Source of the DNA: a virus
Lineage: Duplodnaviria; Heunggongvirae; Uroviricota; Caudoviricetes
Reading direction: 5' to 3' (one strand)
IMG/VR virus record: IMGVR_UViG_2778261505_000002
DNA: 64,000 bases
The position numbers and the translations under genes were made by a program. Within the stretch, counting starts at the first letter, position 1; the number at the start of each line of letters is the position of its first letter. The notes beneath the pieces were generated by a model. That model worked only from the letters and a program-made list of their open reading frames with translations, made no database searches and had not been told where the DNA came from. Shown here in pieces: positions 4,001 to 61,933 of this stretch.

Positions 4001-5820
4001 CAATAAAGGCTGCAAGAGATGAAGCGGCGGCTCTTATTGCTAAGGAAAGCGAGGCTCGTGTTGAAGGTGATGCTGCAAACGCTAAACAACTGGAAGTGTT
4101 GCAGTCAACGGTAGAGGAAAGCTCCGCTGCCGTTGAAGAAATGAAAAAGACGGTTGCAGAGGTCGATCGTGCCAGTGCAGAACTGACTACGAACATTGAG
4201 GCTTTGGCCAAAACAAATATTGACCTGGCTCTTCGTCAAGATGAAGACCAGCACAAGCAGATGGTCAATAACGCGAAGATCGCAACAACACAGAAAACCT
4301 TTGCTGATGATATGTCTGCAATGGCCACGAAGGTTGAGGAAATTCGCGTAGAAATTGGCGAAGATATTAAGGCCAGTATTCTGGAAGAGTCCACCGCTCG
4401 TGCCGATGGCGATGAAGCGTTGGCAAAGCGTGTCACTCAGCTGCAATCTAAGTTTGAAGGAGATATCAGCGCGGCGATTAGTACAGAGCAGGAGGCTCGT
4501 ACATCTGCCGATGAAGCTCTGACGACACAAATCACTCAGCTTGAGTCGAAAGTAAGCAACGATATCGTCGCAGCTATTAAGGAAGAGCAAGAAGCCCGAG
4601 CAACGGAAGATTCGGCTCTGGCAAGCCAGATCACCCAACTTCAGGCAAAGGTTGATGATGATATTTCTGCTGCAATACGCAGTGAGCAGGAGGCCCGAGC
4701 AAGCGGGGACTCTGCGTTAGCCAAACAAATAAACCAGCTTCAGTCAAAGGTTGACGGTGATATATCCGCTGCCATCACTCAGGAGCAGGAGGCCAGAGCA
4801 AGTGCTGACCAGGCGCTCTCACGAGAAATTAACAGCCTGCGAGCACAAACCGGAACTGATATTGCCGCAGCGGTTGCTGTAGAGACAAAAGCAAGGACTG
4901 ATGCCGATAGTGCATTGTCTACCCAGATTACGTCTCTTACAGCAAAAGCTAATGATCTCAAGGCGTCTCTTGCCAGAGAAACAACGGCTCGTGCAGATGG
5001 TGATACCGCTTTAACAAAAGAGGTTTCAAGTTTAAAAGCACAGACAGCGAAAGATATTAGTGCGGCCGTTGCAGTTGAAACGCAGGCTCGAACTGATGCT
5101 GACTCGGCGTTGTCGTCTCAGATCACCAAGCTGACCTCTCAATACAAAGAGGATATTAAAGCGGCTGTAGCAACCGAAACGAAAACGCGTACAGAGCAAG
5201 ATGCTGCATTGGCGACTCAAATCACAAACTTAGAGTCTCAAACGGCAGCCAACATTTCCGCGGCGGTCACAACTGAAACGAAAGCGAGAACGCAGGCAGA
5301 TAATGCTCTGAGTGGGCGAATCGATACTCTGAAAGCAGAGGTGAATGGAAATACCGCGACAATTCAACAGCAGGCAACAGCTATTGCTGATACCAACAAA
5401 AAAGTGTCAACCGCGTGGACGTTGAAAATGGAGACTTCAACGAGCGGAGGGCAGAAGTATGTTGCCGGTATTGCGCTTGGTATTGACACCACTGGGCTAT
5501 CTCAGTTTTTGGTTCAGGCGGACAGGTTTGGTTTGGTCAACTCTGTTAACGGGAAGATCACAACGCCATTTGTTATCGAAAACAGTATCGCCTATATGAA
5601 TGGAGCGTATATCAAGGATGGCACAATCACCAATGCAAAAGTAGGCGATCTGCAATCTACCAATTTTGTTAGCGGTAGATCTGGATGGCGGTTCGGCAAA
5701 AATGGAACGCTTGAGATCAACGGTAATAGCGGCGGCAATGGGCGATTGGTTATAAATGGTCAGCGGATTGACGTTTATGACGATAACAACGTCTTACGAG
5801 TAAGAATTGGCCGTCTGTGA
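1090..5820 (+). CDS. Tail tip / host specificity protein, lambda gpJ-like (central tail fibre), with a coiled-coil tandem-repeat domain
   Basis: 1576 aa; N-terminus resembles lambda J; FN3-like middle section; about ten tandem ~33-aa repeats (EQEARxxxDxALxxQIxxLxSKVxxDIxAAI) between ~4380 and 5340. Confidence 0.8.
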   Translation: MDMEQFKKKKLPLLIAGAGGKKSKSSSRTPVEADDTVNSRAMAAILDLLGEGVIGGLVNGAKSIFIDDLPILNEDGSSNFSGITWDFRDGSQDQTPMAGFDFVETPKSVNIQLKKTHDVTVSIDNDEADRVRVIMKFPSLRSVDKSSGDTNGTTVKYKFQIANADATFSDVVAEGEKSVDITLTAKKTGVYYRSYELKLPKPGRAYKVRVIRLTDDNSSQYLYNDTWVDSIGEIVDTPMNYPNSALVGLKVNSEQFGSTMPSRSYLVRGIKIRVPSNYNEYTNTYVGVWDGTFKLLSSSNPAWILYDLLTNTRYGLGQFVSESMIDLGQLYQIGRYCDEEVDDGFGGKEKRFAINTQITSRQDAYRLIQDIAGAFRGMVFWAGGMVNIMQDSPSDPVMMFTNSNVKDGLFTYKGSARKDRPSVALVTYNNKEDGYKQNIEYVEDQDAMRRYGERKTEVVAFGCTSRGQAHRVGLWLLYTARMESDVITFTAGLDASFLMPGETVLIQNKYRAGKRNSGRIVEFTKNSITLDAPVSLAKSGSFIRILNQEGKIVERDVLETGENITKVTFSKALSSAETPVLNGVWTITEPDLEPMRVRIVNIAQGETSGSFDITAVENNPSKYEAIDNGATLIPQNTTVLDPTYSKPSNLQITEGTYLSSPGNLSVKLTATWEGKSPEYWISWRRSDENNVSNWQSARVTEEQYEIVNVAENGRYDFQLYAVSFNGKKTEIISTVYQVLGTMTPPDAPTSLTAVGDYRNVILNWVNPDSVDLDHINVYASQTNNLDTAKLIAESASTTFTHAGLGDSETWYYWVRASNKRGMLSPPNSNLGTEATTRDVLSFLTGKITSSELGQALLEDINSKVSQEAVDELNEHINQSVESLEGAVNDVKEDIAELDKQFSDNLAGFEIKFNERSDALENAQTELKGEVSATINKVNEAFEKIDATDAAIVEIENTVSEHDKALANTVEAIKAARDEAAALIAKESEARVEGDAANAKQLEVLQSTVEESSAAVEEMKKTVAEVDRASAELTTNIEALAKTNIDLALRQDEDQHKQMVNNAKIATTQKTFADDMSAMATKVEEIRVEIGEDIKASILEESTARADGDEALAKRVTQLQSKFEGDISAAISTEQEARTSADEALTTQITQLESKVSNDIVAAIKEEQEARATEDSALASQITQLQAKVDDDISAAIRSEQEARASGDSALAKQINQLQSKVDGDISAAITQEQEARASADQALSREINSLRAQTGTDIAAAVAVETKARTDADSALSTQITSLTAKANDLKASLARETTARADGDTALTKEVSSLKAQTAKDISAAVAVETQARTDADSALSSQITKLTSQYKEDIKAAVATETKTRTEQDAALATQITNLESQTAANISAAVTTETKARTQADNALSGRIDTLKAEVNGNTATIQQQATAIADTNKKVSTAWTLKMETSTSGGQKYVAGIALGIDTTGLSQFLVQADRFGLVNSVNGKITTPFVIENSIAYMNGAYIKDGTITNAKVGDLQSTNFVSGRSGWRFGKNGTLEINGNSGGNGRLVINGQRIDVYDDNNVLRVRIGRL

Positions 5821-5913
5821 TGGTGGAAAAAAAATTTTATATCGGTAAAAATAGGTAAGTATCTACTTAATGGCGGGCAAGGATAGCCCGCCAAATCAAG
5901 GAGCATATTCAAC

Positions 5914-8900
5914 ATGTGGTACAGGGAAGGTACTATCACATTTACACAGGGCAGCAATACTCTGGTTGGGGCAGGGACAGCCTGGAACGTAACAGCTAAT
6001 GGTGTGTTGCCGGGGATGATCGTCATTGGCCCCGACAATAAGCTGTATGAGATCAAGCGCGTAACCAGTGATACGAACATTGTTCTCTCAGAACCTTATA
6101 CCGGCGAAACTCAGTCTGAAGTTCCGTGCCGAATCATTACGACCTATGAAGGCGACTTAACACAGTTTAGCGCGCGCTTTACTGCGCTAATGTCGCGTAT
6201 ATCGGCTGATTCCAAGTCCATACGCAGTTGGTTGACTGCGCTGGATGAGGTGACAATCGAGCGTGAAGACGGTACAGAAGTGACCGTTAAGCCGCTAATG
6301 CAGATCGTCAACGAGCACAACGAAAACGTTGAGTGGTATAAAAATAACACTGACGCGATTGATGCTGCTGGCGACAAAGCTCGTGAGGCGGCGGCCAGTG
6401 CTGCCGCAGCAGCAAAAAGCGCCAATGCCGCTGGAGAAAAAGCCTCTCAAGCGTCTCAAAGTGCATCCGCTGCGGCATCCTCACAAAGTGCCGCAAGTGC
6501 GAGTGCAACTGCTGCGAAAAAATCTGAAACGAATGCTGCAGCGTCACAAAAATCTGCAGCCACTTCTGCATCCACCGCGACCACGAAGGCGTCAGAAGCT
6601 GCCACCTCAGCCCGGGATGCGGCGGCCTCAAAAGAGGCAGCGAAATCATCAGAAACGAGCGCAGCCTCGAGCGCCAGTAATGCCGCTTCCTCGGCAACGG
6701 CGGCAGGAAATTCCGCGAAGGCGGCAAAAACGTCCGAGACGAACGCCAGGTCTTCTGAAACGGCAGCGGGACAGAGCGCCTCGGCTGCGGCAGGCTCAAA
6801 AACAGCGGCTGCGTCGTCTGCCAGTGCCGCGTCAACAAGTGCCGGGCAGGCCTCAGCCAGTGCCACCGCCGCCGGAAAATCGGCAGAAAGTGCCGCATCG
6901 TCTGCTTCAACTGCCACAACGAAGGCTGGCCAAGCCACTGAACAGGCCAGCGCAGCAGCGAGGTCTGCTTCCGCAGCGAAGACATCCGAAACGAACGCGA
7001 AAGCGTCGGAAACCCGTGCAGAATCCTCAAAAACGGCAGCCGCATCGTCCGCCAGTTCGGCGGCGTCATCGGCATCATCGGCGTCTGCTTCAAAAGATGA
7101 GGCGACCAGACAGGCGTCAGCAGCGAAGGGCAGCGCCACGACGGCATCCACGAAAGCAACAGAGGCGGCAGGCAGTGCGACGGCAGCATCTCAGAGCAAA
7201 ACTGCTGCTGAATCCGCTGCGACCCGTGCGGAAGCTGCTGCTGATCGTGCTGAAGAGATTGCCGGTGCAGTTGCGATGGAAGACGCAAGCCTTACAACTA
7301 AAGGTGTTGTGAAACTTAGCAGTGCTGTCGACAGCACCAGTGAATCGCTGGCCGCAACGCCAAAAGCAGTTAAAGCAGCCAATGACAATGCGAATAGCAG
7401 GGTGCCATCTAACCGAAAAGTTAACGGTAAAGCACTGACTGCGGATATCAAATTAACGCCGAAAGATATTGGTACTTTAAATTCAGTAACGATGTCTTTC
7501 TCTGGCGGGGCAGGGTGGTTCAAACTGGCTACGGTTACCATGCCACAAGCGAGTTCCATCGTTTACATCGCATTGATTGGTGGCGCTGGTTACAACGTCG
7601 GCTCCCCACATCAGGCAGGCATTTCAGAACTGGTTCTACGAGCAGGCAATGGAAACCCCAAAGGGATTACAGGTGCTTTGTGGAAGCGTACAGCTGTCGG
7701 ATTAACGAATTTCGCCTGGATCAACACATCCGGCGATACATATGATATTTACGTTGAGATTGGCAATTATGCGACTCGTGTAAATATCCATTGGGATTGT
7801 ACTGCAAATGCGACAGTTTCTATTTATACCTCGCCAACATATTCAGCGAGTAAGCCTTCCAGCGTTACCGATGGTGTTGTTTATACGATGTATAGCACAC
7901 ATCAGAAACCGACGCCGTTAGATATTGGAGCACTGCCAACAACCGGAGGAACAGTTTCAGGTCCGTTGTCTGTTACAGGTGGATTAACTGGTTCATTGAA
8001 TGGTAATGCAAGTACAGCCACGAAATTGCAGACGGCAAGATCTATCGGTGGAGTTGTTTTCGACGGTTCTGCAAATATTAACCTTCCAGGTGTAAACACT
8101 ACGGGTAATCAGAACACCACTGGTAATGCTGCAACTGCTACAAAACTTCAGACGGCAAGAACTATCGGCGGCGTGAGCTTTGATGGTACTGCGAATATTA
8201 ATTTGCCAGGTGTTAATACGACTGGTAATCAGAACACAACGGGCAACGCGGCTACTGCTACGAAGTTGCAGACTGCGCGTACTATCAATGGGGTGTCGTT
8301 TGACGGCTCGGCAAATATTGCCTTGTCGCCAGCAAATATAGGTTGCCCGGCATCTCCTACTGGTTGGTTAACTACAGGAAGTAATGGAGGAGCAATAACG
8401 ACAGCCCAGTTAGTTACTTTGTTGCAAAATAACGGGGCATTCAGTACGAAAGCATGGATCGCTCGTTGTGCATGGGCGTATGCGAATAGTGCATCCATAC
8501 CAGACAGTGAAACTGGTTGTGGCATTATTCCACTGGCGGGTGCTGTGATAGAAGTATTCAGCAATAATACCAACAATTACACCATTCGAATAACAACGGC
8601 CACTACGACAAATGTCTCTGGTGCACTCACTAATGCGGAGTTTATCTATGTGTCTAATGGCTCAAGTTATTCACCTGGATGGCGCAGAGCGTATAACACT
8701 AGAAACAAACCAACAGCTTCTGATGTAGGAGCATTACCGCTTTCAGGTGGCACATTATCTGGAGGGTTAACGTCTTCTGGTGAGATCGTTTCAAAATATG
8801 CAAATGGTTTCCGCATTGCTTACGGTAACTTTGGGTTCTTTATCCGTAATGATGGGGCGAACACATATTTCCTGCTAACAGCATCAGGAGACACATTAGG

Positions 8901-10065
8901 TTCATGGAACGGTTTGCGACCTATTACAATTAATAATACCAGCGGTGCTGTATCAATTGGTAATGGACTAAATGTGACTGGTGGCGTAAATGGTAGTTTG
9001 AACGGTAATGCTTCAACAGCTACGAAGTTGCAAACAGCGAGAAACATCAATGGTGTTAAGTTTGATGGTTCAGGCGATATCAATATTAATACATTGGTAT
9101 CTCGTGGCCGAGTTACGGCGTTAAGCGGCTCTACTCAAGGCACTGCTGGCATTCAAATGTATGAGGTGTACAACAATAGCTACCCGACCACGTATGGCAA
9201 CGTATTGCACATGAAAGGTGCGAGTGCTGCTGGTGAGGGCGAGTTGCTTATTGGCTGGAGTGGTACGAGCGGTGCACATGCGCCGGTTTTCATTCGCTCC
9301 CGAAGAGATTACACAGGTGCGGCATGGTCAGCGTGGGCGCAGGTATATACATCAAGGGACTCCATTCCTGGTGTGAATGCCACTGGTAATCAGAACACTA
9401 CTGGTAATGCCGCAACCGCCACAAAATTGCAGACAGCAAGGAAAATTGCTGGTGTGGCGTTTGATGGCTCTGCCGATATAACTTTGACTGCGGCTAACCT
9501 TAATGCTTACACGAAAACAGAGGTAGCAAACCTTCTAAGTTCCTATGCAAGCAGATCATCACTGACAGGCTATAGTGGCAACCTGGATATTGTTGCTGAA
9601 ACACTGGTTGTCAAATCAGGCGGTAGTGGAGGGTTTGCTATATGGGATATTGGCACAACTACTAGCGGTGCCAATATGTACATTGATCCAAACCCAGGTA
9701 TCAATACAGTTTGGCGTTCAACGTCTTCAAGGCGCTATAAAAAGGATATTGAAACATTACAAGATCGATATGCTGATGAACTTTTGTCATTAAGACCTGT
9801 TTGGTATCGTTCAATTTGTCGAGGTGACCGAAAGGATTGGGGGTATTACGGCCTTATTGCTGAAGAGGTTGGTGAGATTGCCCCGCAATATGTCCATTGG
9901 CGTGAACCAACAAATAATGATTCTCCAGAAGATATTTCCTCAAATGGTATGGTCGCTGAAGGAGTGATGTATGAGCGTTTGGTTGTACCACTCATTCATC
10001 ATATTCAGCAATTGACCAAAAGGGTTGAGGAGCTTGAAACGAAGTTAAATTCACCTAAAGAATAA
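5914..10065 (+). CDS. Tail fibre protein with C-terminal intramolecular chaperone (peptidase S74-like) domain
   Basis: 1383 aa; Ala/Ser-rich repeats (SETNA...); repeated NTTGNAATATKLQTARxIGGVxFDGxANI modules; C-terminal segment (YKKDIETL...GLIAEEV...ELETKLN) typical of the auto-cleaving chaperone domain of endosialidase/T5 pb1-type fibres. Confidence 0.8.
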   Translation: MWYREGTITFTQGSNTLVGAGTAWNVTANGVLPGMIVIGPDNKLYEIKRVTSDTNIVLSEPYTGETQSEVPCRIITTYEGDLTQFSARFTALMSRISADSKSIRSWLTALDEVTIEREDGTEVTVKPLMQIVNEHNENVEWYKNNTDAIDAAGDKAREAAASAAAAAKSANAAGEKASQASQSASAAASSQSAASASATAAKKSETNAAASQKSAATSASTATTKASEAATSARDAAASKEAAKSSETSAASSASNAASSATAAGNSAKAAKTSETNARSSETAAGQSASAAAGSKTAAASSASAASTSAGQASASATAAGKSAESAASSASTATTKAGQATEQASAAARSASAAKTSETNAKASETRAESSKTAAASSASSAASSASSASASKDEATRQASAAKGSATTASTKATEAAGSATAASQSKTAAESAATRAEAAADRAEEIAGAVAMEDASLTTKGVVKLSSAVDSTSESLAATPKAVKAANDNANSRVPSNRKVNGKALTADIKLTPKDIGTLNSVTMSFSGGAGWFKLATVTMPQASSIVYIALIGGAGYNVGSPHQAGISELVLRAGNGNPKGITGALWKRTAVGLTNFAWINTSGDTYDIYVEIGNYATRVNIHWDCTANATVSIYTSPTYSASKPSSVTDGVVYTMYSTHQKPTPLDIGALPTTGGTVSGPLSVTGGLTGSLNGNASTATKLQTARSIGGVVFDGSANINLPGVNTTGNQNTTGNAATATKLQTARTIGGVSFDGTANINLPGVNTTGNQNTTGNAATATKLQTARTINGVSFDGSANIALSPANIGCPASPTGWLTTGSNGGAITTAQLVTLLQNNGAFSTKAWIARCAWAYANSASIPDSETGCGIIPLAGAVIEVFSNNTNNYTIRITTATTTNVSGALTNAEFIYVSNGSSYSPGWRRAYNTRNKPTASDVGALPLSGGTLSGGLTSSGEIVSKYANGFRIAYGNFGFFIRNDGANTYFLLTASGDTLGSWNGLRPITINNTSGAVSIGNGLNVTGGVNGSLNGNASTATKLQTARNINGVKFDGSGDININTLVSRGRVTALSGSTQGTAGIQMYEVYNNSYPTTYGNVLHMKGASAAGEGELLIGWSGTSGAHAPVFIRSRRDYTGAAWSAWAQVYTSRDSIPGVNATGNQNTTGNAATATKLQTARKIAGVAFDGSADITLTAANLNAYTKTEVANLLSSYASRSSLTGYSGNLDIVAETLVVKSGGSGGFAIWDIGTTTSGANMYIDPNPGINTVWRSTSSRRYKKDIETLQDRYADELLSLRPVWYRSICRGDRKDWGYYGLIAEEVGEIAPQYVHWREPTNNDSPEDISSNGMVAEGVMYERLVVPLIHHIQQLTKRVEELETKLNSPKE

Positions 10066-13559: not shown

Positions 13560-13877
13560 GTATTCCTCCTGATGGCCGTGATGTAGGAAGGCCATCAATC
13601 TCCTCTGTTCAAACTGAGTTTTCGACTCAAAAATTACTTTAAAAGGCTATAGCCCATTACGTGTGCATTATCAAATTGTGTACGGCATATCACCGTACTT
13701 GTAATATAGAGGTCATTGTTACTTTTTTCAACAGACAAATACAAGCTATGTTTGCCAATTGTTAATCACAACCTACCATTTAACCTTTACACCGCAGCCG
13801 TAGGCATTTAGGCTATATCACATATAAGAAAACAAGTTGTTTCAGACGATAATTATATACGCAAAGGGAACTCTCCA

Positions 13878-14546
13878 ATGACCAAGATCTTTGTGGTTGG
13901 CGGCACAAAGGGCGGGCCTGGCAAATCCACCGTTGCCCAGCAAATTGCCGTTTGCCTGAAAGTCAAAAAGAAGAAGAAGGTTTATATTACCGATATAGAT
14001 ATTCAGCGCACGACAACGAGCTGGTGTGAAGACCGTCGACAGAACGAAGACCTTGAGCTGATTCCTTTTGCATACGTTCAGGATGACATCATTAAGCACC
14101 TAAAATCGCTTCAGGGTAGAGCTGAGTTTGTAGTGGTAGATGCTGGTGGCTTCGACTCCGAAATTCAGCGACAAGCGATGCTGATGGCTGACGTTATCAT
14201 TATCCCGCTGCGTCCTAAGCGTCGTGATTTGAAATCTTTACGTGACATCGATCCTATTATCGACAATGTTCGCAATGTAAACGATAAAGTGAAGGTCCGC
14301 GCGGTCATGAACCAGTGCCCGGCTTTGCCATCACAAGTGTCTCGCATTCTGGCGGCTAAAGAGATTGTTGAGACGTTTGGAATCGAGTCTGCGCCAGTCA
14401 ATCTATATAACCGCAACGTCTATGATGATGCGGAAGAGTCTGGTCGTTCTATCTTTGAAATGACCGGTAGCGAGCGCGACAAAAAGGCGGAAGCCGAGTT
14501 TGAAGAATTTGTAGATTATCTGTTGAGTCTGGAGGAAGAAGAATAA
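13878..14546 (+). CDS. parA: ParA-family partition ATPase
   Basis: Deviant Walker A (GGTKGGPGKST); 222 aa; followed by a small basic ParB/ParG-like gene whose start overlaps the parA stop. Confidence 0.85.
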   Translation: MTKIFVVGGTKGGPGKSTVAQQIAVCLKVKKKKKVYITDIDIQRTTTSWCEDRRQNEDLELIPFAYVQDDIIKHLKSLQGRAEFVVVDAGGFDSEIQRQAMLMADVIIIPLRPKRRDLKSLRDIDPIIDNVRNVNDKVKVRAVMNQCPALPSQVSRILAAKEIVETFGIESAPVNLYNRNVYDDAEESGRSIFEMTGSERDKKAEAEFEEFVDYLLSLEEEE

Positions 14547-14905
14547 TGTCCATGAAAATGGGTGACCTAGCAAAGCGCAAAGAGCCTGATGCACCGGCTA
14601 AGAACACAACTCCTTTGCGCCAACCAGTCAGACCACAGGGACGCCCGACTCGTGGCAAAGAGAAAATTAAAAGCCGCACAATGTCACTGGAGGACGAATA
14701 CTTCGAACTGCTGGAGATGATGAAGTTCATCCCTCGCTTCGAGAAGTTCACTCGTTCTGACGTGATTCGAGCAGCCATTTTCCATCTGGCAGAGAAGTCA
14801 CCGCAGGAAATCGAGGACATCGTGAAATTGAATGAGGCGATCACCGCTGCCGATGTCACGATGCGTACCGATGAAATCAAACGAGAGTTGATGAAGAAAG
14901 GTTAA
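14546..14905 (+). CDS. Small centromere-binding partition protein (ParG/ParB-like, type Ib)
   Basis: 119 aa, basic N-terminal tail, operonic with parA (overlapping start/stop). Confidence 0.6.
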   Translation: MSMKMGDLAKRKEPDAPAKNTTPLRQPVRPQGRPTRGKEKIKSRTMSLEDEYFELLEMMKFIPRFEKFTRSDVIRAAIFHLAEKSPQEIEDIVKLNEAITAADVTMRTDEIKRELMKKG

Positions 14906-14910
14906 AAATC

Positions 14911-14941
14911 ATGCATTGGCGCGTACATTGCGCCAATGCAT
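14911..14941. terminator. 12-bp perfect hairpin between convergent genes (terminator or protein-binding site)
   Basis: ATGCATTGGCGC-GTACATT-GCGCCAATGCAT; a T-run follows on the minus strand. Confidence 0.5.
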
Positions 14942-14957
14942 AACTACAGTGTCAGCT

Positions 14958-15725
14958 TTATGCCGCGCTAACACTATGTTCAGTCCTAACCACCCCAACC
15001 TTCACAAAAGGGCTACCGTAGCTTGGTGGCTTCTTGATTAATTTGCCTACATACAGTTTTCTAATATGCTCATCGGCTATTCTGCCAACAAATTCATAAC
15101 GTTTTGTGTCGGGGCCAAGAGCTATATCCCTTGTAAAGTACTGCTGAGAACCGGCTTTGACCCAGCATTCAATCTGATAAACTTCCATTATCAGCCCACC
15201 ATATGTAGCGTAGGCATATTTGAGATTCTCGTCTCTTGGAACCTTTGCCCATACGCCACGCGTAGCTTCATATAATGCCAGAGCGGACATTCCTGACTTG
15301 TAGGTGCTGTTTAGCAGGAAGGCAAGACCGGCGTGCTCAGGAGCAATTTCAGTTTCCTCTTGCAGCACTAAGTGATGGTAGGCGTCTAGTGATATTCTGC
15401 CCATCATGGAACCACTTCCTCGTACCTTATTCGTAAGCTCTCCGACCCCCATAAGGTCGATGCATGTCGCCTCAACAAGTTTGGCTGTGGTTTCATCCAT
15501 ACCATGACGAAGTATATCTATGCCTAATTTTTTATTAGCCAAAAGTTCTTTGATCCGCATGGATTTGGGAGAGTCATCGGGATACTTGATGTGATCGAGA
15601 CAACGAGTCGATTTGCCTTTTCCTATGTAAAACGGTCTTTTCATCTTGTCTTCTGTATCATAGAGACAGTAAACATAGTATTTAGCCTTATCCAATGATC
15701 TCGCGTATACCGATAAATCGTCCAT
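14958..15725 (-). CDS. GIY-YIG nuclease-domain protein
   Basis: N-terminal YVYCLYD...PFYIGKGK motif (GIY-YIG); 255 aa; isolated on the minus strand. Confidence 0.6.
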   Translation of the reverse strand: MDDLSVYARSLDKAKYYVYCLYDTEDKMKRPFYIGKGKSTRCLDHIKYPDDSPKSMRIKELLANKKLGIDILRHGMDETTAKLVEATCIDLMGVGELTNKVRGSGSMMGRISLDAYHHLVLQEETEIAPEHAGLAFLLNSTYKSGMSALALYEATRGVWAKVPRDENLKYAYATYGGLIMEVYQIECWVKAGSQQYFTRDIALGPDTKRYEFVGRIADEHIRKLYVGKLIKKPPSYGSPFVKVGVVRTEHSVSAA

Positions 15726-15837
15726 TATTGCATCTCTTTGCTACTGACTAATGCGTTCTATTTTACACATAAGTTTTTAATCAATTTAACAGGCTCAAAG
15801 TGTAGAGCTTCTGGGCGTCTAAGACGACAAGTTATGC

Positions 15838-15892
15838 CTGCTTCCGTATATATAAATAATAAGTAACTTATTAAATATATACGGAAGCAGGT
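15838..15892. repeat. Large palindrome (17-bp inverted arms around an AT-rich palindromic core)
   Basis: CCTGCTTCCGTATATAT ... ATATATACGGAAGCAGG; a near-identical element recurs at 61770-61825. Confidence 0.7.
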
Positions 15893-15998
15893 CTTTTAAA
15901 AGACACCACCAGAACAACTCCCTTCCGTTTCCACTTCCAAAAACTGCCACCAGTCGCTATCATCCGCTCATTGTGATAAGTAAGTAACTACCTACCAG

Positions 15999-16748
15999 GT
16001 GAGCCACATGAGCCAAATCTTTTTCGATACCATCGACAACGACCAGTACGACTTCATGACAGAGTGGAATACCGCTGTTATGGACAAGTGGGTCGCTGAA
16101 AACATTGGTTTGTCGCGCTGTAAAGACGAGGCTGAACTCTTCGAGACGAAGTGGTTTGATTACCGCGACATGCATCCTCTCATGGCCACCTGTCTTTTTA
16201 CGGAGGCATACAAACGTCAGTACTCAAATATCATGCTGACGCACGGTCGCGAACACTTTGAAACAGCTCCGTTCACCACCGGGTTAAAACGTCTGCCTTA
16301 TCAGGAGTTGTCGACTGCCAATAAAACGTCGCTATGGAAAGCACGCCAGTTTGCGGATCGCTATTGCTGCTCATACGACTACTTTATCTCCACCGTTCTT
16401 TCCGCAGCTGCACGACGGCTGTGGGACAAGCTGCCGCGCCCACAGCATTTATGGCAGCCAGAACTGATTGAGATATTTGAAGAGAAATTAGCCAGACGCG
16501 CAACAACCCGTCTGGATGACTCTCTGGTTAGCTTTAAGCATATGGGAGACATGCAGTTCAACCCGATTCAGGAAAGCTATTTTGAGTGGATTCTGGAGCG
16601 TTTGCGCACCATCCCTCGCAGCAAGCGCATACGCGCAATTTTCTCCGCTATCTGGCTAATGGAAATCGTTCCAGAGCGCCTTATTTCCGCCCACTTTCCA
16701 GAAGAACTGGAAGAAGCACGGCGGTTTATTGATCCCCTATCTAATTAA
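15999..16748 (+). CDS. Hypothetical protein (first gene of the replication block; possible helicase loader)
   Basis: 249-aa ORF directly upstream of the DnaB-like helicase; no motif recognised. Confidence 0.4.
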   Translation: MSHMSQIFFDTIDNDQYDFMTEWNTAVMDKWVAENIGLSRCKDEAELFETKWFDYRDMHPLMATCLFTEAYKRQYSNIMLTHGREHFETAPFTTGLKRLPYQELSTANKTSLWKARQFADRYCCSYDYFISTVLSAAARRLWDKLPRPQHLWQPELIEIFEEKLARRATTRLDDSLVSFKHMGDMQFNPIQESYFEWILERLRTIPRSKRIRAIFSAIWLMEIVPERLISAHFPEELEEARRFIDPLSN

Positions 16749-16791
16749 CTAATACTAGAAAACAATTTGTTTAAAAAACAAAGGAAAGCAC

Positions 16792-23699: not shown

Positions 23700-23774
23700 G
23701 ATGGTGTAGCTCAGCGGTAGAGCAGTTGGCTGTTAACCAACTGGTCGGTGGTTCGAATCCACCCACCATCGCCA
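23700..23774 (+). tRNA. tRNA-Asn (anticodon GTT)
   Basis: Cloverleaf folded by hand: 7-bp acceptor stem GATGGTG/CACCATC, anticodon loop CTGTTAA, GGTTCGAATCC T-arm, encoded CCA. Confidence 0.85.
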
Positions 23775-23779
23775 ATTTA

Positions 23780-23866
23780 GGGGAGTTAGTCCGTAGAGGT
23801 AGCGGTGTAGACTGTAAATCTACTGTCATTGCGACTCGGGTGGTTCGACTCCATCACTCCCCACCA
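23780..23866 (+). tRNA. tRNA-Tyr (anticodon GTA), long variable arm
   Basis: Acceptor GGGGAGT/ACTCCCC, anticodon stem-loop GTAGA-CTGTAAA-TCTAC, long variable arm, T-loop TTCGACT, CCA; D-arm pairing is atypical. Confidence 0.75.
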
Positions 23867-23870
23867 AATT

Positions 23871-23946
23871 GCCGGTTTAGCTCAGTTGGTAGAGCGCCTG
23901 CCTTGTAAGCAGGATGTCAGCGGTTCGAGTCCGTTAACCGGCACCA
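23871..23946 (+). tRNA. tRNA-Thr (anticodon TGT)
   Basis: Acceptor GCCGGTT/AACCGGC, D-arm GCTCAGTTGGTAGAGC, anticodon loop CTTGTAA, T-loop TTCGAGT, CCA. Confidence 0.85.
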
Positions 23947-25274: not shown

Positions 25275-26378
25275 ATGAAAAATAGCTTTGACAGAGCACG
25301 CGCTGCGGAGAACACCTCAAAAGAGGCGATTGAGTATCTCGAAAGAGCATCTCAAATGCAGGCCGTTATGATCTCGCAGGTTAGCAATGATATGAGATTC
25401 TCGGACGCATTCATGTTATTTACTCGCTTATCTCTGCTGATAACCAGACGTCGGCCAGAGATCGCTGTTCATTGTATTTTGATACATGTTTTGCCGCACA
25501 TTGCCGATGTAAAAGTAAGTGACATTAATAGGTTCATGGTGAACCAACTGGTCAACCCACTAATACTGGATGGCAAAATTGTTATGGGCCGCCGCGTTTT
25601 CTCTCTGATGAAGCAGTTCCTTAGCTGGTGCGCCTTCCAGGGGATGATAGACGTGTCACCGTTAAACGATATGTCACTTAACAAAGTTGCCGGTGGCGCA
25701 AAGCCCACACCTCGCGAGCGGAAGCTGACCGACGCAGAGGTATGGGTGTTCTGGAATATATGGGACTACTTCAATGTGTGCGCTGGTACAAAATGGGCGG
25801 CCAGGCTGTGTCTTGTATCCGCAAGACGACCTGACGAAGTACTGCGGGCTAAAAAAAGTGAGTTCAATCTTAAGCGTGGGGTTTGGAATCAAGGCAAGAG
25901 GAACAAATCTGCCCGTGAGCATTCGCTGCCTTTAAGCACATTAATGCGCACATGTATTGAAGAGTTGTTCGAATACGGTAAAGGCAGCCAGTGGCTCGTG
26001 CCTTCGAATAAAAAAATCGGGAAAGACCTTCCTATGTCTAAAGTGGCAATAGCCCAGGCATTACGTCGTATTCTGGAACGACCAGAACTGATGGAGCTTG
26101 AGCCATTTACACCCCGAGACTTGCGCCGTACTGCGCGTAGTTACTTCCCAGCATTAGGCATAAGCCAGGAGGTATCACGTAAAATCATGAACCACAGTCT
26201 TGAGGGGATAGATCGAGTCTACGACCGGCACGATTATATGGACGAGATGCGAGACGCCTTAGAAAGTTTCTCGACGTACATCGCATCAATCGTAGAGCAA
26301 CCGGATTTAGACGAAATTGACCACAAATTCAAGGGAGATCGTCTATCAACAGAGCTTATTCGTGTAAATTTTTCATAG
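25275..26378 (+). CDS. Tyrosine site-specific recombinase (integrase or resolvase)
   Basis: C-terminal catalytic-domain pattern (…RRPDEV…, FTPRDLRRTARSY, MNHSLEGIDRVYDRHDY) consistent with the R-H-R-Y signature. Confidence 0.7.
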   Translation: MKNSFDRARAAENTSKEAIEYLERASQMQAVMISQVSNDMRFSDAFMLFTRLSLLITRRRPEIAVHCILIHVLPHIADVKVSDINRFMVNQLVNPLILDGKIVMGRRVFSLMKQFLSWCAFQGMIDVSPLNDMSLNKVAGGAKPTPRERKLTDAEVWVFWNIWDYFNVCAGTKWAARLCLVSARRPDEVLRAKKSEFNLKRGVWNQGKRNKSAREHSLPLSTLMRTCIEELFEYGKGSQWLVPSNKKIGKDLPMSKVAIAQALRRILERPELMELEPFTPRDLRRTARSYFPALGISQEVSRKIMNHSLEGIDRVYDRHDYMDEMRDALESFSTYIASIVEQPDLDEIDHKFKGDRLSTELIRVNFS

Positions 26379-35017: not shown

Positions 35018-35134
35018 TTTTTGATAGATAATAAGTAAGTACTGATCTATCATTTAACAGCTCGAAAGAGCCACGAATGAACGAAAGCCCAACGCGCATA
35101 GCGCCATCGGCCAAATCACAACAAGGAGAAACAC

Positions 35135-38514: not shown

Positions 38515-38541
38515 AAGGCGTCCACAGGACGCCTTTTTTAT
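38515..38541 (+). terminator. Rho-independent terminator (GGCGTC hairpin family)
   Basis: AAGGCGTCC-ACAG-GACGCCTT followed by TTTTATC. Confidence 0.85.
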
Positions 38542-39682: not shown

Positions 39683-39732
39683 TCGTTATTATCACACACA
39701 AGAAAACAATTTGTTAAAAGGTTAAGTTAATT

Positions 39733-40557
39733 ATGCCCAACCACATTACAAACGAAATCCGAGTCATAGGTGGTACAAATAAACAACGCTTAGATTTCAT
39801 ACGTGCCATAACTAACAAAAAAGGTCTAATTGACTTTAATACCATTTGCAGACGTCCGAAAAGTATAGAAATGGAAGAAAACAATCATATCAGGCGCATG
39901 GCCTCTGCAATGGCGGGCGAAACAGTTTACGACCACATGTTCGGTGAATTAAAAACTCCAGAACAGGTCGAATTAGCTATGCGTGAATCAGGAATGACAC
40001 GCAAGGAAATTCGCAAAATCAAAGAGCAGGCTCTTATGCGGCTTGAGAATTATCGTCGCTATGGCTATTACTCATGGTTTGACTGGTCGCGAGCTAATTG
40101 GGGAACAAAATGGAATGCCTACAACATCGAAATGCCCGTAAAACGTATCCCTACACGTATTAAGTACGGCCATAATTTCCGCCATACACACGTTCGAGCA
40201 TATGCAAAACGAATCTATAAAAAACGTCTTGCAAGACATGCCGCAACTGGTGGTGAGTTGGTGATTCGCTTTGAAACAGCATGGTCTATGCCAAAACCAA
40301 TTTATCAGGCGATGGCTAGAAAGTTCCCGCACCTTGAGTTTGTAATACGTTATGCAGACGAAGACTTCGGCAATAACTGCGGATTCATTTTACTTCGCAA
40401 CGGCAAATGGGAATATGACTACATTGCACCGGCGAATAACGAACAATCGTCAGAAGAAAAAATCAAATGGTGCAAGTTCGCCTTTGAGTTATGTTGTCCT
40501 GGTATCACTCCACAAGAATACGGTCTAAATGAAAAATACGAATACGCCGGATATTAA
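39733..40557 (+). CDS. Hypothetical protein (Trp-rich SWFDWSRANWGTKWNA motif)
   Basis: 274-aa ORF preceded by the AAAACAATTTGTT palindrome; family not recognised. Confidence 0.45.
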   Translation: MPNHITNEIRVIGGTNKQRLDFIRAITNKKGLIDFNTICRRPKSIEMEENNHIRRMASAMAGETVYDHMFGELKTPEQVELAMRESGMTRKEIRKIKEQALMRLENYRRYGYYSWFDWSRANWGTKWNAYNIEMPVKRIPTRIKYGHNFRHTHVRAYAKRIYKKRLARHAATGGELVIRFETAWSMPKPIYQAMARKFPHLEFVIRYADEDFGNNCGFILLRNGKWEYDYIAPANNEQSSEEKIKWCKFAFELCCPGITPQEYGLNEKYEYAGY

Positions 40558-40589
40558 TGCTTTACGCACGAAGCATAGAGGTTAAGAAG

Positions 40590-41330
40590 ATGAAAAGAAA
40601 AATTGAAGAACCAAAAACGACCCTTAATAAACATGGGGAAAAAATTCAAACACACCCAGCGTTCGGTCTTGTGAAAACAAGCCGTGTTAGCACGACTGGC
40701 ATTCGTCTATTTGATTCAGAACTGGAACATAGAGACTATATTGAAATAGGCGTTTACGAGGCTGAACTATCCTTGGATAATGAACGAACCCGGCCACAAA
40801 GGAGTAGCAATAGACGGCCTTTAGTTGAAATTAGACTTAGCCAGGCACAATGGGCTGCTATGGTTAGCAGTTTTGGTGTGGGCGAAGGTGTGCCATGCAC
40901 TATTTCATATAAAACCATTGGCGACTCAATTAGAGTTCATGATATTGCCGAGCAAAAAAGTATTCGACAAAAATTCAACGATCAAATAAAGGCAGCTACG
41001 AATAGTGAGATTGATCGACTTAATCAGCAAGTATCAGAGCTAGGTGAGCTTGTGAAAAAAGGAAGAGCTGGAAAACGTGACCTTGAAGAACTATATAGAA
41101 AACTTGCATCTGCTGTAGCTAACCTTCCTGAAAATCTGTGCTTTGCTACCGAATTAATGCAGGAGCAAATGGATGAAATTGTCTCATCTGGAAAGGCGGA
41201 GATTGAGGCGTATGTTGCAGGCACTGTTATGCGTAAAGGGTTAGCAGCATTAGGCACAGAATCATGCATTAACGATGCTCCTACTGTCTCTATCACCAAA
41301 ATGGAAAGCGGTAAAGAATTACTGCCATAA
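40590..41330 (+). CDS. Hypothetical protein with central coiled coil
   Basis: Start set at ATG after GAGG RBS (track ORF begins at 40557); no motif recognised. Confidence 0.4.
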   Translation: MKRKIEEPKTTLNKHGEKIQTHPAFGLVKTSRVSTTGIRLFDSELEHRDYIEIGVYEAELSLDNERTRPQRSSNRRPLVEIRLSQAQWAAMVSSFGVGEGVPCTISYKTIGDSIRVHDIAEQKSIRQKFNDQIKAATNSEIDRLNQQVSELGELVKKGRAGKRDLEELYRKLASAVANLPENLCFATELMQEQMDEIVSSGKAEIEAYVAGTVMRKGLAALGTESCINDAPTVSITKMESGKELLP

Positions 41331-44125: not shown

Positions 44126-44172
44126 ATGCAAACTGACTGCGGAACGTGCCGCAGTCATATTTCATAGTCGTC

Positions 44173-44705
44173 ACCGCTGACAGCATACACAATCAACTAC
44201 CGCTGATAGCATATCGAGAGTCTATCTCACCGCTCACAGCATACATTACTCGATTTTTTACCGCTGACAGCATACTTAAGAAATTGCATGAATAATGTGT
44301 CCCGGTATGGGTATAACCAGAACAAAATTACCGCTGGCAGCATACGAATGTCTGACATATACCATTAATTACCGCTGATAGCATATCCAAACAAAAATTC
44401 CTCAATAAAACACCGCTGACAGCATACATTCTATCAGAGAGTAGCAGGCAATAAATGCCTTTCACTACAAGCAATCAGCGCAATAGCAATAGAATGTTAG
44501 TGAGCGCAAACCTATATGGAATGCACTCTTCGAGGTTAGTAACCACTGGGGAGGTATGACAGAGCATTGAGTGGTGATAGATGATTTACCGCTCACAGCA
44601 TACGTTCATCTCACTATACCGCTGGTAGCATATCTTTAACCGTTCACAGCATACTTTTCAGAAAAATAGCCGCTGATAGCATACATTTCACCGCTGACAG
44701 CATAT
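44173..44705. repeat. Iteron array downstream of repA (incA-like), about 12 copies of a 16-bp repeat
   Basis: ACCGCTGACAGCATAC and close variants at about 44173, 44199, 44228, 44259, 44329, 44370, 44411, 44587, 44618, 44639, 44668, 44690; variable spacing; ends at the rep stop codon. Confidence 0.85.
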
Positions 44706-45799
44706 CAAAGCAGTTTGAGACTATTGGAAAGGATCTCAATCATCTTGATATTTTCAGGCGTCAAATTCTGCGAAAGTTCGGTTATCTTGTTGATAATGTT
44801 CTGTTTGGCATCAATTTCCCCAGCTTTCTCATCTGGTTTTTTGGGTTCGATGTCTTCAGGTTTTGGCGGTGCGACTTTGAGTTTTGGATTGCGGCTGTGA
44901 ATCTGGATATAGATCGACCGCCCACGCTTAATCTCGCTGTATTCGAGATAGCCCAAATCTTGGAGAGCTTTTAAGCCGTTACGTATAGTCTGATTCTGCG
45001 AGCTGACATTCCTGCTACTCAAATTGAGTCGCGCACGCAATCGAGCAAGCGATACCGGCGCAGGCTTGGTTGGAAGACTTTCGATGAAGGTGTACAGAGC
45101 CTGTGCTGTTTCTTTGCGTGGTAGCTTATTGATAACCTTTAACTGCAAAAGAACCTTATGGTCAAAGCGATATAGTTCGGCCAGCTTCGGTTCTGCATAG
45201 AACACCACCGTATCTTTCTGCTCGTTGTAGTCCACGCTATTGATGAGGTGCACCATCAGAAGCGAGATCTTGTTAGAGCCGTCGACGTTCTTTTCTTCAT
45301 ACGTTCTCTGGAAAGACAGAGTTGTACGCATGATCTTCAAAAGACTGTTTGTAAGCCGGTCGCGGAGTGTTTTGCGGATCTGTGACGATGGATAGCCACA
45401 AAACTTAGCAAATTTCGTGATACTTAACTCGACACGACCGTTAGGTTCGCCGTATTCTGCCAGCGAACGCACAACGCCCACCCACGTTTTGAAATCATGA
45501 TCCATGTCGAGACGAGGACCGGTTATCTTGATATCGGAATAGCCTTCAGAACGGGCTACTTCGAGCTGGACAAGCTCCTTTGAAGCATCGATCTCATTTG
45601 GCTTGTTACGTTTACTGTATTTTGTTCCCTTAAGCGTGGGGACGAACAACCCCAGTCGCATCAACGCAATTGGTTGGACTGTATTGTTGCTATTAGGGAC
45701 AAGTTCCCCTGTGTACAATTCAAGGGAACCTTCTTCAAAGTTGTCGATGTTATCTTCTACTTCTTTGTTATTTTTACCTTTTTTATTTTTTGTGGACAT
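44705..45799 (-). CDS. repA: Plasmid-type replication initiator (RepA-like, iteron-binding)
   Basis: Flanked on both sides by arrays of the same 16-bp iteron; start set at ATG after AAAGG RBS (track ORF extends to 45919 across the upstream iterons); basic protein of RepA-like size. Confidence 0.7.
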   Translation of the reverse strand: MSTKNKKGKNNKEVEDNIDNFEEGSLELYTGELVPNSNNTVQPIALMRLGLFVPTLKGTKYSKRNKPNEIDASKELVQLEVARSEGYSDIKITGPRLDMDHDFKTWVGVVRSLAEYGEPNGRVELSITKFAKFCGYPSSQIRKTLRDRLTNSLLKIMRTTLSFQRTYEEKNVDGSNKISLLMVHLINSVDYNEQKDTVVFYAEPKLAELYRFDHKVLLQLKVINKLPRKETAQALYTFIESLPTKPAPVSLARLRARLNLSSRNVSSQNQTIRNGLKALQDLGYLEYSEIKRGRSIYIQIHSRNPKLKVAPPKPEDIEPKKPDEKAGEIDAKQNIINKITELSQNLTPENIKMIEILSNSLKLL

Positions 45800-45819: not shown

Positions 45820-45921
45820 ACCGCTGACAGCATACTTGATTTGCCGCTGACAGAATACCAAAAACAGTTGGCAGCATACGGTGAACCGCTGACAGACTAT
45901 CAATTACCGCTGACAGCATAC
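45820..45921. repeat. Iteron array upstream of repA (incC/origin-like), 5 copies at ~21-23 bp spacing
   Basis: ACCGCTGACAGCATAC-type repeats at 45820, 45843, ~45864, 45885, 45906, overlapping the presumed rep promoter. Confidence 0.85.
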
Positions 45922-53984: not shown

Positions 53985-54058
53985 GATTTGTAAGCCTTGT
54001 TTAAACACATAAGATAACAACTTGTTTAAACGCACCAAAAAAGAAAAAGGAAAAACAC

Positions 54059-56148: not shown

Positions 56149-56292
56149 TTGTAGGTAGTTATCTATCTGTGTATATTGCGCTGGCGCGTTAAATTTCTGA
56201 AACAACTATTCGTTTTTGGTGGCCTATGGCCACCATTTTTTTATCTGTCTGGTCTTGTTCTCTCAATAAATGTAAACTCACGCAATGAATAA

Positions 56293-61154: not shown

Positions 61155-61748
61155 ATGATTGCAGCCGAAAAAATCAAACAGCGAAAGCGCGACAACTCTC
61201 TTCGTGACCTCTGGAGAACACCTGACTGGCTGTTTTCTGCCATTCAACGTTATCTTGGAGTGACATTTGATGTTGACGTTGCCTGCAACAAGGACAATGC
61301 AAAGCTGCCTAATTTCATAGGCGTTGAGCGTGATGCTTTGAAATCTGAATGGGGACAGCCAGGTACAATTGCCTTCCTCAATCCACCCTACTCCAAAATC
61401 TACCCCTGGATTGATGCGGCTATACGTGAGCAGGCTCGCGGAGTTACAACAGTGATGCTAATTCCTCAATCCCTAGATACAAAGTGGTATGAGCGTGCAA
61501 CAGAGTGTGCGAATGAGACGATTATTCTGTCTGGTGGCCGCGTAGCGTTTGTCGAGCCTGACGTAAATCTGGGGCAGGTAGAAGTAAACATCAACCCAGG
61601 TGGCAGTATGCTCGTTGTTTTTCGAGGATTCTGTCAGGACGCTGGGCACTCTATAAGCAAGATCCCTTTGGACGTCATGAAAAGTCTGGGAGGGTATGAT
61701 CCTGCGAATGTGATCAGGAAAAAAAGACCATCAAAGAAGGCTGCTTAG
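61155..61748 (+). CDS. DNA N6-adenine methyltransferase (phage Dam family)
   Basis: Catalytic NPPY motif (IAFLNPPYSKIYPW) and T1-Dam-like architecture; 197 aa. Confidence 0.8.
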   Translation: MIAAEKIKQRKRDNSLRDLWRTPDWLFSAIQRYLGVTFDVDVACNKDNAKLPNFIGVERDALKSEWGQPGTIAFLNPPYSKIYPWIDAAIREQARGVTTVMLIPQSLDTKWYERATECANETIILSGGRVAFVEPDVNLGQVEVNINPGGSMLVVFRGFCQDAGHSISKIPLDVMKSLGGYDPANVIRKKRPSKKAA

Positions 61749-61769
61749 TTTGTTCTGGCGTCTGTAATT

Positions 61770-61825
61770 AGCCTGCTTCTGTATATATAAATAACTACAT
61801 ATTAATTATTAATATACGGAAGAAG
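61770..61825. repeat. Second copy of the large palindrome (CTTCTGTATATAT ... ATATACGGAAG)
   Basis: Near-identical in arms and AT-rich core to the element at 15838-15892. Confidence 0.65.
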
Positions 61826-61933
61826 GCTGTTTTGTATCAGAGACTCCAGACCTGAACATCACTACAGAATCCACTAGAACCCCTTCCCAGACGCTTTAAA
61901 ATCGATTTTATGAACCACTTTAAGGAAACCAAC

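Follow-up and report, generated by a model that had tools for sequence, protein, structure and literature searches.

In phage lambda, the terminator hairpin of tI/sib can extend into a longer duplex on read-through, and the RNase III sites of phage T7 resemble one another in sequence. Intergenic repeats of the ERIC and Correia type can terminate transcription or be processed, and the plasmid prophage N15 carries four dispersed centromere inverted repeats, located near its replication and late genes. The palindromes described here, which lie at the gene-block borders of an SSU5-like phage-plasmid, resemble Rho-independent terminators in that a stable GC-based hairpin follows soon after a stop codon, with a T-run behind copies 1 and 2 and a drop of expression at the orthologous site 1. 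Unlike such terminators, however, their stem of ∼25 pairs is mostly A-U and far longer than that of the ordinary terminators in the same DNA, their sequence is common to three paralogous copies and conserved across genera, and the copy at site 3 lacks a U-run. With lambda tI/sib and the T7 sites they share the long two-tier hairpin and the location at operon junctions in a phage with mostly unidirectional transcription, but here much larger internal loops separate the outer helix from the inner one, the outer helix is significant at some copies only, and a processing role is putative. Like the N15 centromere repeats, several palindromes are scattered over a plasmid prophage, but their arms covary at variable spacing and the ParB-domain genes are silent in the lysogen. 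As in loxP and FRT, inverted arms with a ...TTC(C)GTATA... motif surround an A+T-rich centre, which is 21–110 nt long instead of 8 nt, and three direct copies per replicon coexist without deletion products. Finally, they are similar to ERIC and Correia repeats in being ∼100–130 nt long, intergenic, transcribed and hairpin-forming, yet they occupy three fixed syntenic positions and are not dispersed in host chromosomes.

The DNA stretch of 64,000 nt analysed here (the window) belongs to an Escherichia coli SSU5-like phage-plasmid (99.8% identity over 2 kb to NZ_CP070135.1), whose kin include the phages SSU5, Cyrano (pLF82) and PhiR41_1, and carries almost all of its genes on the + strand. Copy 1 is a palindrome of 55 nt, CCTGCTTCCGTATATAT-AAATAATAAGTAACTTATTAA-ATATATACGGAAGCAGG, whose two 17-nt arms, CCTGCTTCCGTATATAT and ATATATACGGAAGCAGG, pair perfectly and enclose a centre of 21 nt, AAATAATAAGTAACTTATTAA; the axis of its inner palindrome is shifted by one base versus the outer axis. 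Copy 2 shows 79% identity with copy 1; its centre is degenerate, and the clamp formed by its arms contains a G.U and a G.A mismatch. The preliminary description had set copy 1 one base too high (15838–15892) and copy 2 at 61770–61825, both of which are corrected in Table 1, but was right in placing both copies in intergenic regions, the first at the entry of the replication block and the second after the N6-adenine methyltransferase gene.

Table 1. Positions of the two palindromes, their parts and the adjoining genes in the window.
Feature	Position	Strand	Remarks
GIY-YIG (LEM-3-like) nuclease gene	14958..15725	-	left of copy 1; lineage-specific
Upstream outer box TTCTGGG of copy 1	15809..15815	+	outer inverted repeat weak here (z 1.7)
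Copy 1 (site 1)	15837..15891	+	GC clamp CCTGCTTCCG / CGGAAGCAGG, AT-rich stem, inner core; fold −32.4 kcal/mol
Inner palindrome TAATAAGTAACTTATTA	15857..15873	+	holds TAAGT..ACTTA motif, also in promoter spacers elsewhere in the window
T-run/tail TCTTTTAAAAGA	15892..15903	+	directly 3' of copy 1 stem; proposed terminator U-tract
Downstream outer box CCAGAA of copy 1	15909..15914	+	inverted partner of TTCTGG
First replication-block gene	16008..16748	+	downstream of copy 1; CYRAN_31 orthologue, silent in lysogen
N6-adenine methyltransferase gene	61155..61748	+	stop codon 23 nt before copy 2
Upstream outer box TTCTGG of copy 2	61753..61758	+	4 nt past methyltransferase stop; outer inverted repeat z 3.1
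Copy 2 (site 2)	61772..61826	+	55-nt variant palindrome, degenerate core
Tail CTGTTTTGTAT	61827..61837	+	3' of copy 2 stem
Downstream outer box CCAGACC of copy 2	61846..61852	+	extra CCCAGAC at 61886–61892

That both palindromes are real was confirmed by arm-pattern counts and by fold energies compared with shuffled sequences. The 17-nt arm pattern, with up to three mismatches allowed, matched four times in the window against 0.14 matches expected, and none of 100 shuffles reached four. As + strand RNA, copy 1 (z = −8.9) folds more stably than any of 200 shuffles, and the same holds for copy 2 at −21.1 kcal/mol (z = −4.1; 0/200 shuffles), both giving the stable stem-loop with a GC-rich base in the transcript that characterizes an intrinsic terminator. 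The predicted RNA fold has an 18-bp stem and a 7-bp stem joined by a 3x1 internal loop, as compared with the ∼20 bp or more of near-continuous dsRNA, often interrupted by an internal loop, taken as the criterion for RNase III. A search of the whole window with Rfam 15 at the gathering score returned three tRNAs only and no match for the palindromes, and in E-value mode the region 15740–16010 yielded only sub-threshold miRNA-precursor hairpins (≤22 bits versus cut-offs of 50–211). Three consecutive tRNA genes lie at 23700–23943 of the window, in a region where the Cyrano annotation lists tRNAs for Asn, Thr and Ser.

The surroundings of copy 1 differ between lineages. Homology with Cyrano and SSU5 stops exactly at its left edge, and other genes occupy the slot of the GIY-YIG gene in these phages; this gene may be a free-standing homing endonuclease insertion. 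The parA operon of the window (13878–14905) reads toward copy 1, across the GIY-YIG gene in antisense, and between these two convergent units lies a perfect 12-nt inverted repeat, ATGCATTGGCGC N7 GCGCCAATGCAT (14911–14941), whose hairpin is followed by a T-run on the minus strand only and resembles a terminator of the minus-strand GIY-YIG gene. No centromere-like iterons were found near parA, where this inverted repeat was the sole structure. To the right of copy 1, the first replication-block gene is followed by genes for a DnaB-like helicase, a primase and a ligase, and downstream of copy 2 a small gene precedes RNase H.

Repeats of other kinds are also present in the window. At least 11 iterons of ∼20 nt (ACCGCTGACAGCATAC) form two clusters ∼1.1 kb apart (44169–44708 and 45839–45921), in a region for which a RepB-family plasmid replication initiator gene is annotated in a related plasmid, and the tail-fibre region contains in-frame periodic repeats of 99 nt and 120 nt (4486–5285 and 7964–9497). 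A further motif, GAAAACAAKTTGTTT, recurs just before start codons (13814–13845, 16744–16775, 39688–39719 and 53999–54030 of the window, and ∼6950–6985 on the minus strand of L002, a stretch of NZ_CP070135.1); two of its copies lie between site 3 and terS, and it may be a late or translational control site.

The search for further copies, as the preliminary description had proposed, revealed a third one outside the window in near-identical relatives. In NZ_CP070135.1 this copy (site 3; L002 7022–7076, minus strand) has the same orientation as the others and a centre identical to that of copy 1, and is located between a gene of 88 aa and the terS-like and terL genes. Distances of ∼30–46 kb separate the three copies on the circle of ∼108 kb. 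In IMG/VR, a pattern scan yielded 116 stretches, usually three per ∼100-kb contig, and BLAST analysis of PLSDB detected the element in 800 plasmids of Klebsiella, Escherichia, Enterobacter, Yersinia, Salmonella, Citrobacter and Cronobacter. Among complete E. coli genomes it was present in 260 of 5426, at 1390 places on plasmids versus four on chromosomes (the median of six places per genome corresponds to three copies counted on both strands), and three co-oriented, syntenic copies were the norm in both the 800 plasmids and the 260 genomes. Yersinia pestis pMT1 has retained only the terS-adjacent copy, next to terS/terL. The element is thus a fixed feature of SSU5-like phage-plasmids and no host repeat, as its syntenic copies and its distribution between plasmids and chromosomes demonstrate, and for the same distribution (1390 versus 4 in 5426 E. 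coli genomes) a MITE or host repeat was excluded. None of the matched PLSDB or E. coli records annotates it, and none of the papers searched prints the arm sequence or describes palindromes in SSU5, pHCM2, pMT1 or pLF82. The three copies represent a conserved and unannotated fold-back family of these phage-plasmids. In the phage collection, no TerL relatives were found between 95% and 60% identity.

In the enteric clade, the clamp and the adjoining TATATATAAATA are nearly invariant even though the flanking genes are just 77–82% identical. The arm variants that do occur comprise single changes and compensated ones, for example CTG...CAG, CCTGTTTCT...GGAAACAGG and CCTGCGTCTG...CAGACGCAGG, the compensated changes affecting arm positions 5, 6 and 9. 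Scanning species-representative genomes with the Dam protein uncovered distant relatives in Kluyvera, Xenorhabdus and Morganella (Dam 61–86% identical), and the Xenorhabdus element, used in turn as a BLAST query against PLSDB, brought in plasmids of Moellerella, Pectobacterium and Providencia. In Xenorhabdus, Morganella and Moellerella, a longer palindrome with a different GC clamp is found at the same post-Dam place (clamps of this distant clade are, for example, TGCCTTGCTCCCATA / TATGGGAGCAAGGCA and CCTAGCTCCCATA / TATGGGAGCTAGG), and a complete Moellerella plasmid carries the element at all three syntenic sites together with one half copy. The spacing of the arms, 21 nt in the window, ranges from 52 to ∼110 nt in Moellerella.

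For covariation analysis, the clamp regions of both clades were aligned after exchanging the variable centre for a fixed linker. Between the clades, nine of the 14 clamp pairs were changed on both sides, most of these double changes separating the two clades and hence representing few events that affect many pairs. In this alignment 93.6% of the cells were paired, as opposed to 32–49% when the partner was slid, and the observed covariation was reached in none of 500 shuffles. Since the clamp pairs covary while the arm spacing varies, the aligned sequences indicate that selection acts on intrastrand pairing and not on a fixed dimer site; the variable spacing also speaks against binding of duplex DNA by a protein dimer and makes ready extrusion of a cruciform doubtful. 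Copies within one genome nevertheless resemble one another much more closely than hairpin formation would demand: in E. coli lineages the 55-mers of sites 1 and 3 are identical, and the same 26-nt arm, CCTAGCTCCCATAGTATTTATATAAT, recurs in each of the four Moellerella copies, which implies gene conversion or a sequence-specific partner. Regarding the nature of the paired strand, G.U outnumbered A.C mismatches in the arms (11 versus 5 haplotypes), a weak + strand bias, but not in the flanks (22 versus 34), by which RNA is not established over DNA as the carrier.

At site 1 of both Cyrano and Moellerella, the asymmetric centre has the opposite orientation. Natural variants of the palindrome include this flipped centre (Cyrano site 1, L153 7011–7063), a centre that is symmetric throughout (L072) and arms with double compensation (L127), all of which look like products of template switching or of recombination within the palindrome. 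The Moellerella half copy, the fourth in that plasmid, is nested in a separate perfect 14-nt inverted repeat, GTACCTATGTTTAT ... ATAAACATAGGTAC (L163 512–596).

Many copies are in addition nested in a longer, imperfect inverted repeat of the form TTCTGG ... CCAGA, which in enterics reads TCTGGGAG upstream and CTCCCAGA downstream and in the Morganellaceae CCGCAGTG and CACTGCGG; more CCAGA boxes follow downstream. Compared with shuffled flanks, this outer repeat had a mean z of 2.2; it attained z-values of 6–9 at site 2 of several lineages and was weak or absent at other copies, including copy 1 of the window. As it is significant at some copies only, it is a frequent but not a defining part of the element.

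Several lines of evidence point to termination of transcription at copy 1 and, by analogy, at copy 2. On the + strand the stem is directly followed by TCTTTT behind copy 1 and by CTGTTTTGT behind copy 2, whereas the minus-strand tails, CATAACTTG and CTAATTACAG, respectively, contain no T-run. The preliminary description had suggested strong bidirectional terminators; termination as such gains support from these + strand T-runs and from the expression data given below, but the minus-strand tails speak for one direction only. All enteric lineages have a + strand T-run at their sites 1 and 2, and Moellerella has one at its site 1; at site 1 a TCTTTT-type tail is conserved throughout the lineages, Moellerella included. 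The T-run is absent from site 3 in all enteric lineages examined and from sites 2 and 3 in Moellerella, Xenorhabdus and Morganella. All copies are oriented with transcription. Wherever the gene upstream of it is co-oriented, which is the case at sites 2 and 3 and, in SSU5 and Cyrano, also at site 1, the element starts 23–24 nt past the stop codon of that gene. An automated terminator scan of the window called neither copy because their loop or stem is over its limits and only four T are present, the U-tracts UCUUUU (copy 1) and CUGUUUUGU (copy 2) each having four U and thus remaining under the threshold of five of eight. Ordinary short GC-rich terminators of unrelated sequence exist in the same window, for example at 38515–38535 and 56217–56235, and for this reason the palindromes are considered a separate class located at module borders.

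A short conserved GC hairpin of another type, AGAGCGC-ATGGAC-GCGCTCT with the T-rich tail GTGTGTTTTAG, occurs ∼25 nt before the terS start (L002 6916–6943, minus strand; SSU5, L123 ∼95–125) and resembles an attenuator ahead of the late genes.

Expression on both sides of site 1 could be compared in the RNA-seq table of the Cyrano lysogen. CYRAN_30, just upstream of the site, reached log2 values of 8.6–10.4 in eight of ten samples and ∼5.8 in two LB samples, while CYRAN_31, just downstream, remained at background (2.3–4.2) (PMC9928086). These per-gene values, from a relative and for site 1 only, correspond to a drop across the orthologue of copy 1 from log2 ∼10 to ∼2.6–3 in the LF82/Cyrano lysogen, that is more than 100-fold (PMC9928086). 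The 193-nt gap between CYRAN_30 and CYRAN_31 contains no terminator-like element besides the palindrome, which in Cyrano folds at −42 kcal/mol and is followed by UCUUUU, so the hairpin is the probable cause of the drop. The parA/toxin module upstream of site 1, as the values of CYRAN_30 show, is expressed in this lysogen (PMC9928086). The most highly transcribed prophage locus in lysogeny, at ∼700 times background, is CYRAN_43 (Cyrano 40268–40822, between the glutaredoxin and integrase genes; PMC9928086), which may be a regulatory RNA instead of a protein gene.

Taken as a whole, the element is most likely a terminator or insulator hairpin in the transcript and not a recombination or partition site. 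In its full form, our proposal, to which we assign roughly an even chance of being correct, is that the palindromes constitute a three-copy family of boundary hairpins, formed in + strand RNA, which would act as one-directional terminators where a U-run follows and as protection or processing structures elsewhere. The fold-back elements mark the three main operon junctions, namely that from plasmid-maintenance and lysis genes to replication genes (site 1), that from the nucleotide-metabolism genes and dam to the next block (site 2), and that from the ParB-like and ABC genes to terS and the structural genes (site 3). The functional form would be an intrastrand hairpin with a GC clamp closing a long A+T-rich stem; its likeliest carrier is the + strand transcript, RNA appearing more probable in this role than single-stranded DNA. 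Where the clamp precedes a U-run, as in both window copies, a one-directional Rho-independent terminator would result. At copy 1, the evidence supports such a terminator or insulator, which would block transcription originating in the constitutive parA/toxin–antitoxin module from entering the lytic replication operon that is silent in the lysogen; copy 2, by analogy, may serve the same function and close the replication/nucleotide block. Termination cannot be the function common to all copies, because site 3 of enterics and sites 2 and 3 of the Morganellaceae relatives have no U-run. By analogy with the known phage hairpins, these copies may form 3'-end-protecting or RNase III-type processing structures in read-through transcripts. 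A plain terminator, moreover, leaves unexplained the likeness of the copies within a genome, the U-run-less site 3 and the opening of the SSU5 record in a palindrome.

The most interesting remaining reading is a role at the DNA level in origin function, programmed breakage or packaging, which we regard as rather unlikely. The palindromes would in this case be cis sites for a phage factor or nuclease, that is lytic origins, sites of hairpin cleavage by an SbcCD/gp46-47-like enzyme starting recombination-dependent replication, or recognition or cut sites of the terminase. The use of one clamp within a genome and of different clamps between clades would fit such a role, as would the spacing of the copies around the circle, the flipped cores, flanks without G.U bias, and a T4-like set of recombination and replication genes (UvsW, UvsY, gp32-like, RecA, SbcCD-like and RuvC, as annotated by the depositors). 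For an origin, an A+T-rich unwinding element closed by GC clamps lies beside helicase and primase genes, but no iterated initiator sites were found besides the short CCAGA boxes. For packaging, site 3 is located 117 nt upstream of terS, is the copy kept next to terS/terL by Y. pestis pMT1, and contains both the start and the end of the SSU5 record NC_018843.1. However, this version would demand three cos or pac sites per genome, for which we know of no precedent, and the phage record PQ492289.1 was not opened in a palindrome. With central spacers of 50–110 nt, as in Moellerella, duplex DNA is unlikely to extrude a cruciform, and the per-gene drop of RNA at site 1 is already explained by termination.

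The linear SSU5 record has both of its ends in the site-3 palindrome (L124 10238–10300 and L123 1–40), with ...ACTTATTA at one end and AATATATACGG... at the other, so that the cut falls between nt 37 and 38 of the palindrome, and the ends of the Cyrano record show the same layout (terS at 135–767; 62 nt after the last gene). PV340561.1 was deposited as circular. The SSU5 ends may represent either a physical end or an assembly break, and since IMG/VR contigs break at all three sites (L108, L046 and L011), an assembly artefact is the simpler reading.

A related and equally tentative idea, more doubtful than the boundary hairpins as such, is that the hairpins are no plain terminators but serve as cis sites for a clamp-reading system specific to the phage, either as an antitermination or processing switch at the time of induction or as DNA fold-back sites cut by an SbcCD-like nuclease or the terminase. 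If true, either version would explain the identical copies per genome, the differences between clades and the retention of the hairpin without a U-run. The antitermination or processing version would mean that all three module borders are switched together on induction, whereas the DNA version would start recombination-dependent replication or packaging and would explain why the SSU5 record ends in the terS-adjacent copy.

It appears quite improbable that the element is a promoter or operator, in which the invariant TATATATAAATA would serve as a −10 box or as a T4-late-type TATAAATA box, a repressor would bind the TAAGT-ACTTA core as its operator, and the downstream block would be driven from there. 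The + strand of both copies does carry TATAAATA, a functional block follows each copy, and the core TAAGTAACTTA is one of a family of motifs that is overrepresented in the window (eight found, 0.6 expected) and present in predicted promoter spacers. On the other hand, the GC clamp would fall in the spacer although no other part is as constrained, the asymmetric part has the reverse orientation at site 1 of Cyrano and Moellerella, the core of copy 2 is degenerate, and no sigma-70-like site was called on the + strand at either copy. The box TATAAATA does not lie upstream of other genes, and a T4-type late promoter was rejected since the box is not enriched (four in 64 kb versus 1.9 expected) and changes strand in some copies.

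The TAAGT..ACTTA family itself is found upstream of genes at 5856, 19411, 22933, 29449, 38556, 51577 and 56290, with further positions at 35028, 46889, 61125, 63340 and 15975 of the window. Several of its members lie in the spacers of predicted sigma-70-like promoters (for example 38545, TTGAAA-17-TATTAT, and 51569, TTGATA-17-TAACAT), and the family is probably the operator of a phage regulator.

Likewise very improbable are dispersed partition (centromere) sites of the N15 type, to which the ParB-domain proteins or the 119-aa partner of the small ParA would bind, although parS-like sites were among the functions first considered. The plasmid prophage encodes a ParA-type ATPase (13878–14546) and two proteins with a ParB_N domain, it has no iterated centromere-like repeats beside parA, and its palindromes are several and dispersed as in N15. 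The ParB_N genes, however, precede terS in the late operon and, with log2 values of ∼2.3–5.2, are silent in the lysogen (PMC9928086), in which a partition protein should be expressed. While parS half-sites have a fixed geometry and a conserved sequence, the spacing here varies and nine of 14 clamp pairs are changed on both sides, and arms 21–110 nt apart with compensatory changes do not fit a dimer on B-DNA. The variable spacing and the compensatory evolution of the arms thus tend to disfavour a parS-like site.

A third function initially suggested, target sites of the tyrosine recombinase (25275–26378) for multimer resolution or module exchange, is hardly credible. The arm ...CTTCCGTATA distantly resembles the loxP arm ...CTTCGTATA, a likeness that is no test; the left edge of copy 1 coincides exactly with a break of homology between lineages, and in the site-2 variant L008 the left flank is that of one lineage and the right flank that of a different one. 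Such breakpoints are, however, as expected from homologous recombination at any conserved island. Three direct repeats would resolve into sub-circles, but all are kept in most of the 800 plasmids, while the integrase is expressed in the Cyrano lysogen (PMC9928086). No chimera between different sites was detected in ∼115 loci, and the two shortened plasmids (69.9 and 72 kb) retain normal site 1 flanks, by which deletion between copies was ruled out for both. In place of the 11–13-bp arms and 6–8-bp spacer of lox, dif or FRT cores, 17-nt arms stand 21 nt apart, or 52 to ∼110 nt in Moellerella. As far as can be judged from the sequences, the stable direct repeats in the presence of an expressed integrase, the lack of chimeras and the arm spacing speak against a recombination or resolution site. 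It is equally implausible that the palindromes derive from a small mobile repeat of the MITE, ERIC or Correia type and have no function for the phage. The intergenic, palindromic unit of ∼100–130 nt with short terminal inverted boxes would suggest such an origin, but its positions are fixed and syntenic across genera, on plasmids rather than chromosomes, and its structure is kept by compensatory change across deep divergence.

SSU5-like phage-plasmids are common in clinical Enterobacterales, as illustrated by the 800 PLSDB plasmids and the ∼5% of complete E. coli genomes that carry the element; some members of the group carry resistance genes, and their switch between maintenance and lytic growth is essentially unstudied. 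An unannotated element located at exactly three module borders therefore offers a good handle on the regulation of phage-plasmids. As it breaks short-read assemblies and marks the edge of a variable cargo region, the element is also useful for annotation and typing. With respect to the boundary hairpins proposed here, copy 1 appears to be a barrier that silences the lytic replication operon beside constitutively expressed maintenance genes.
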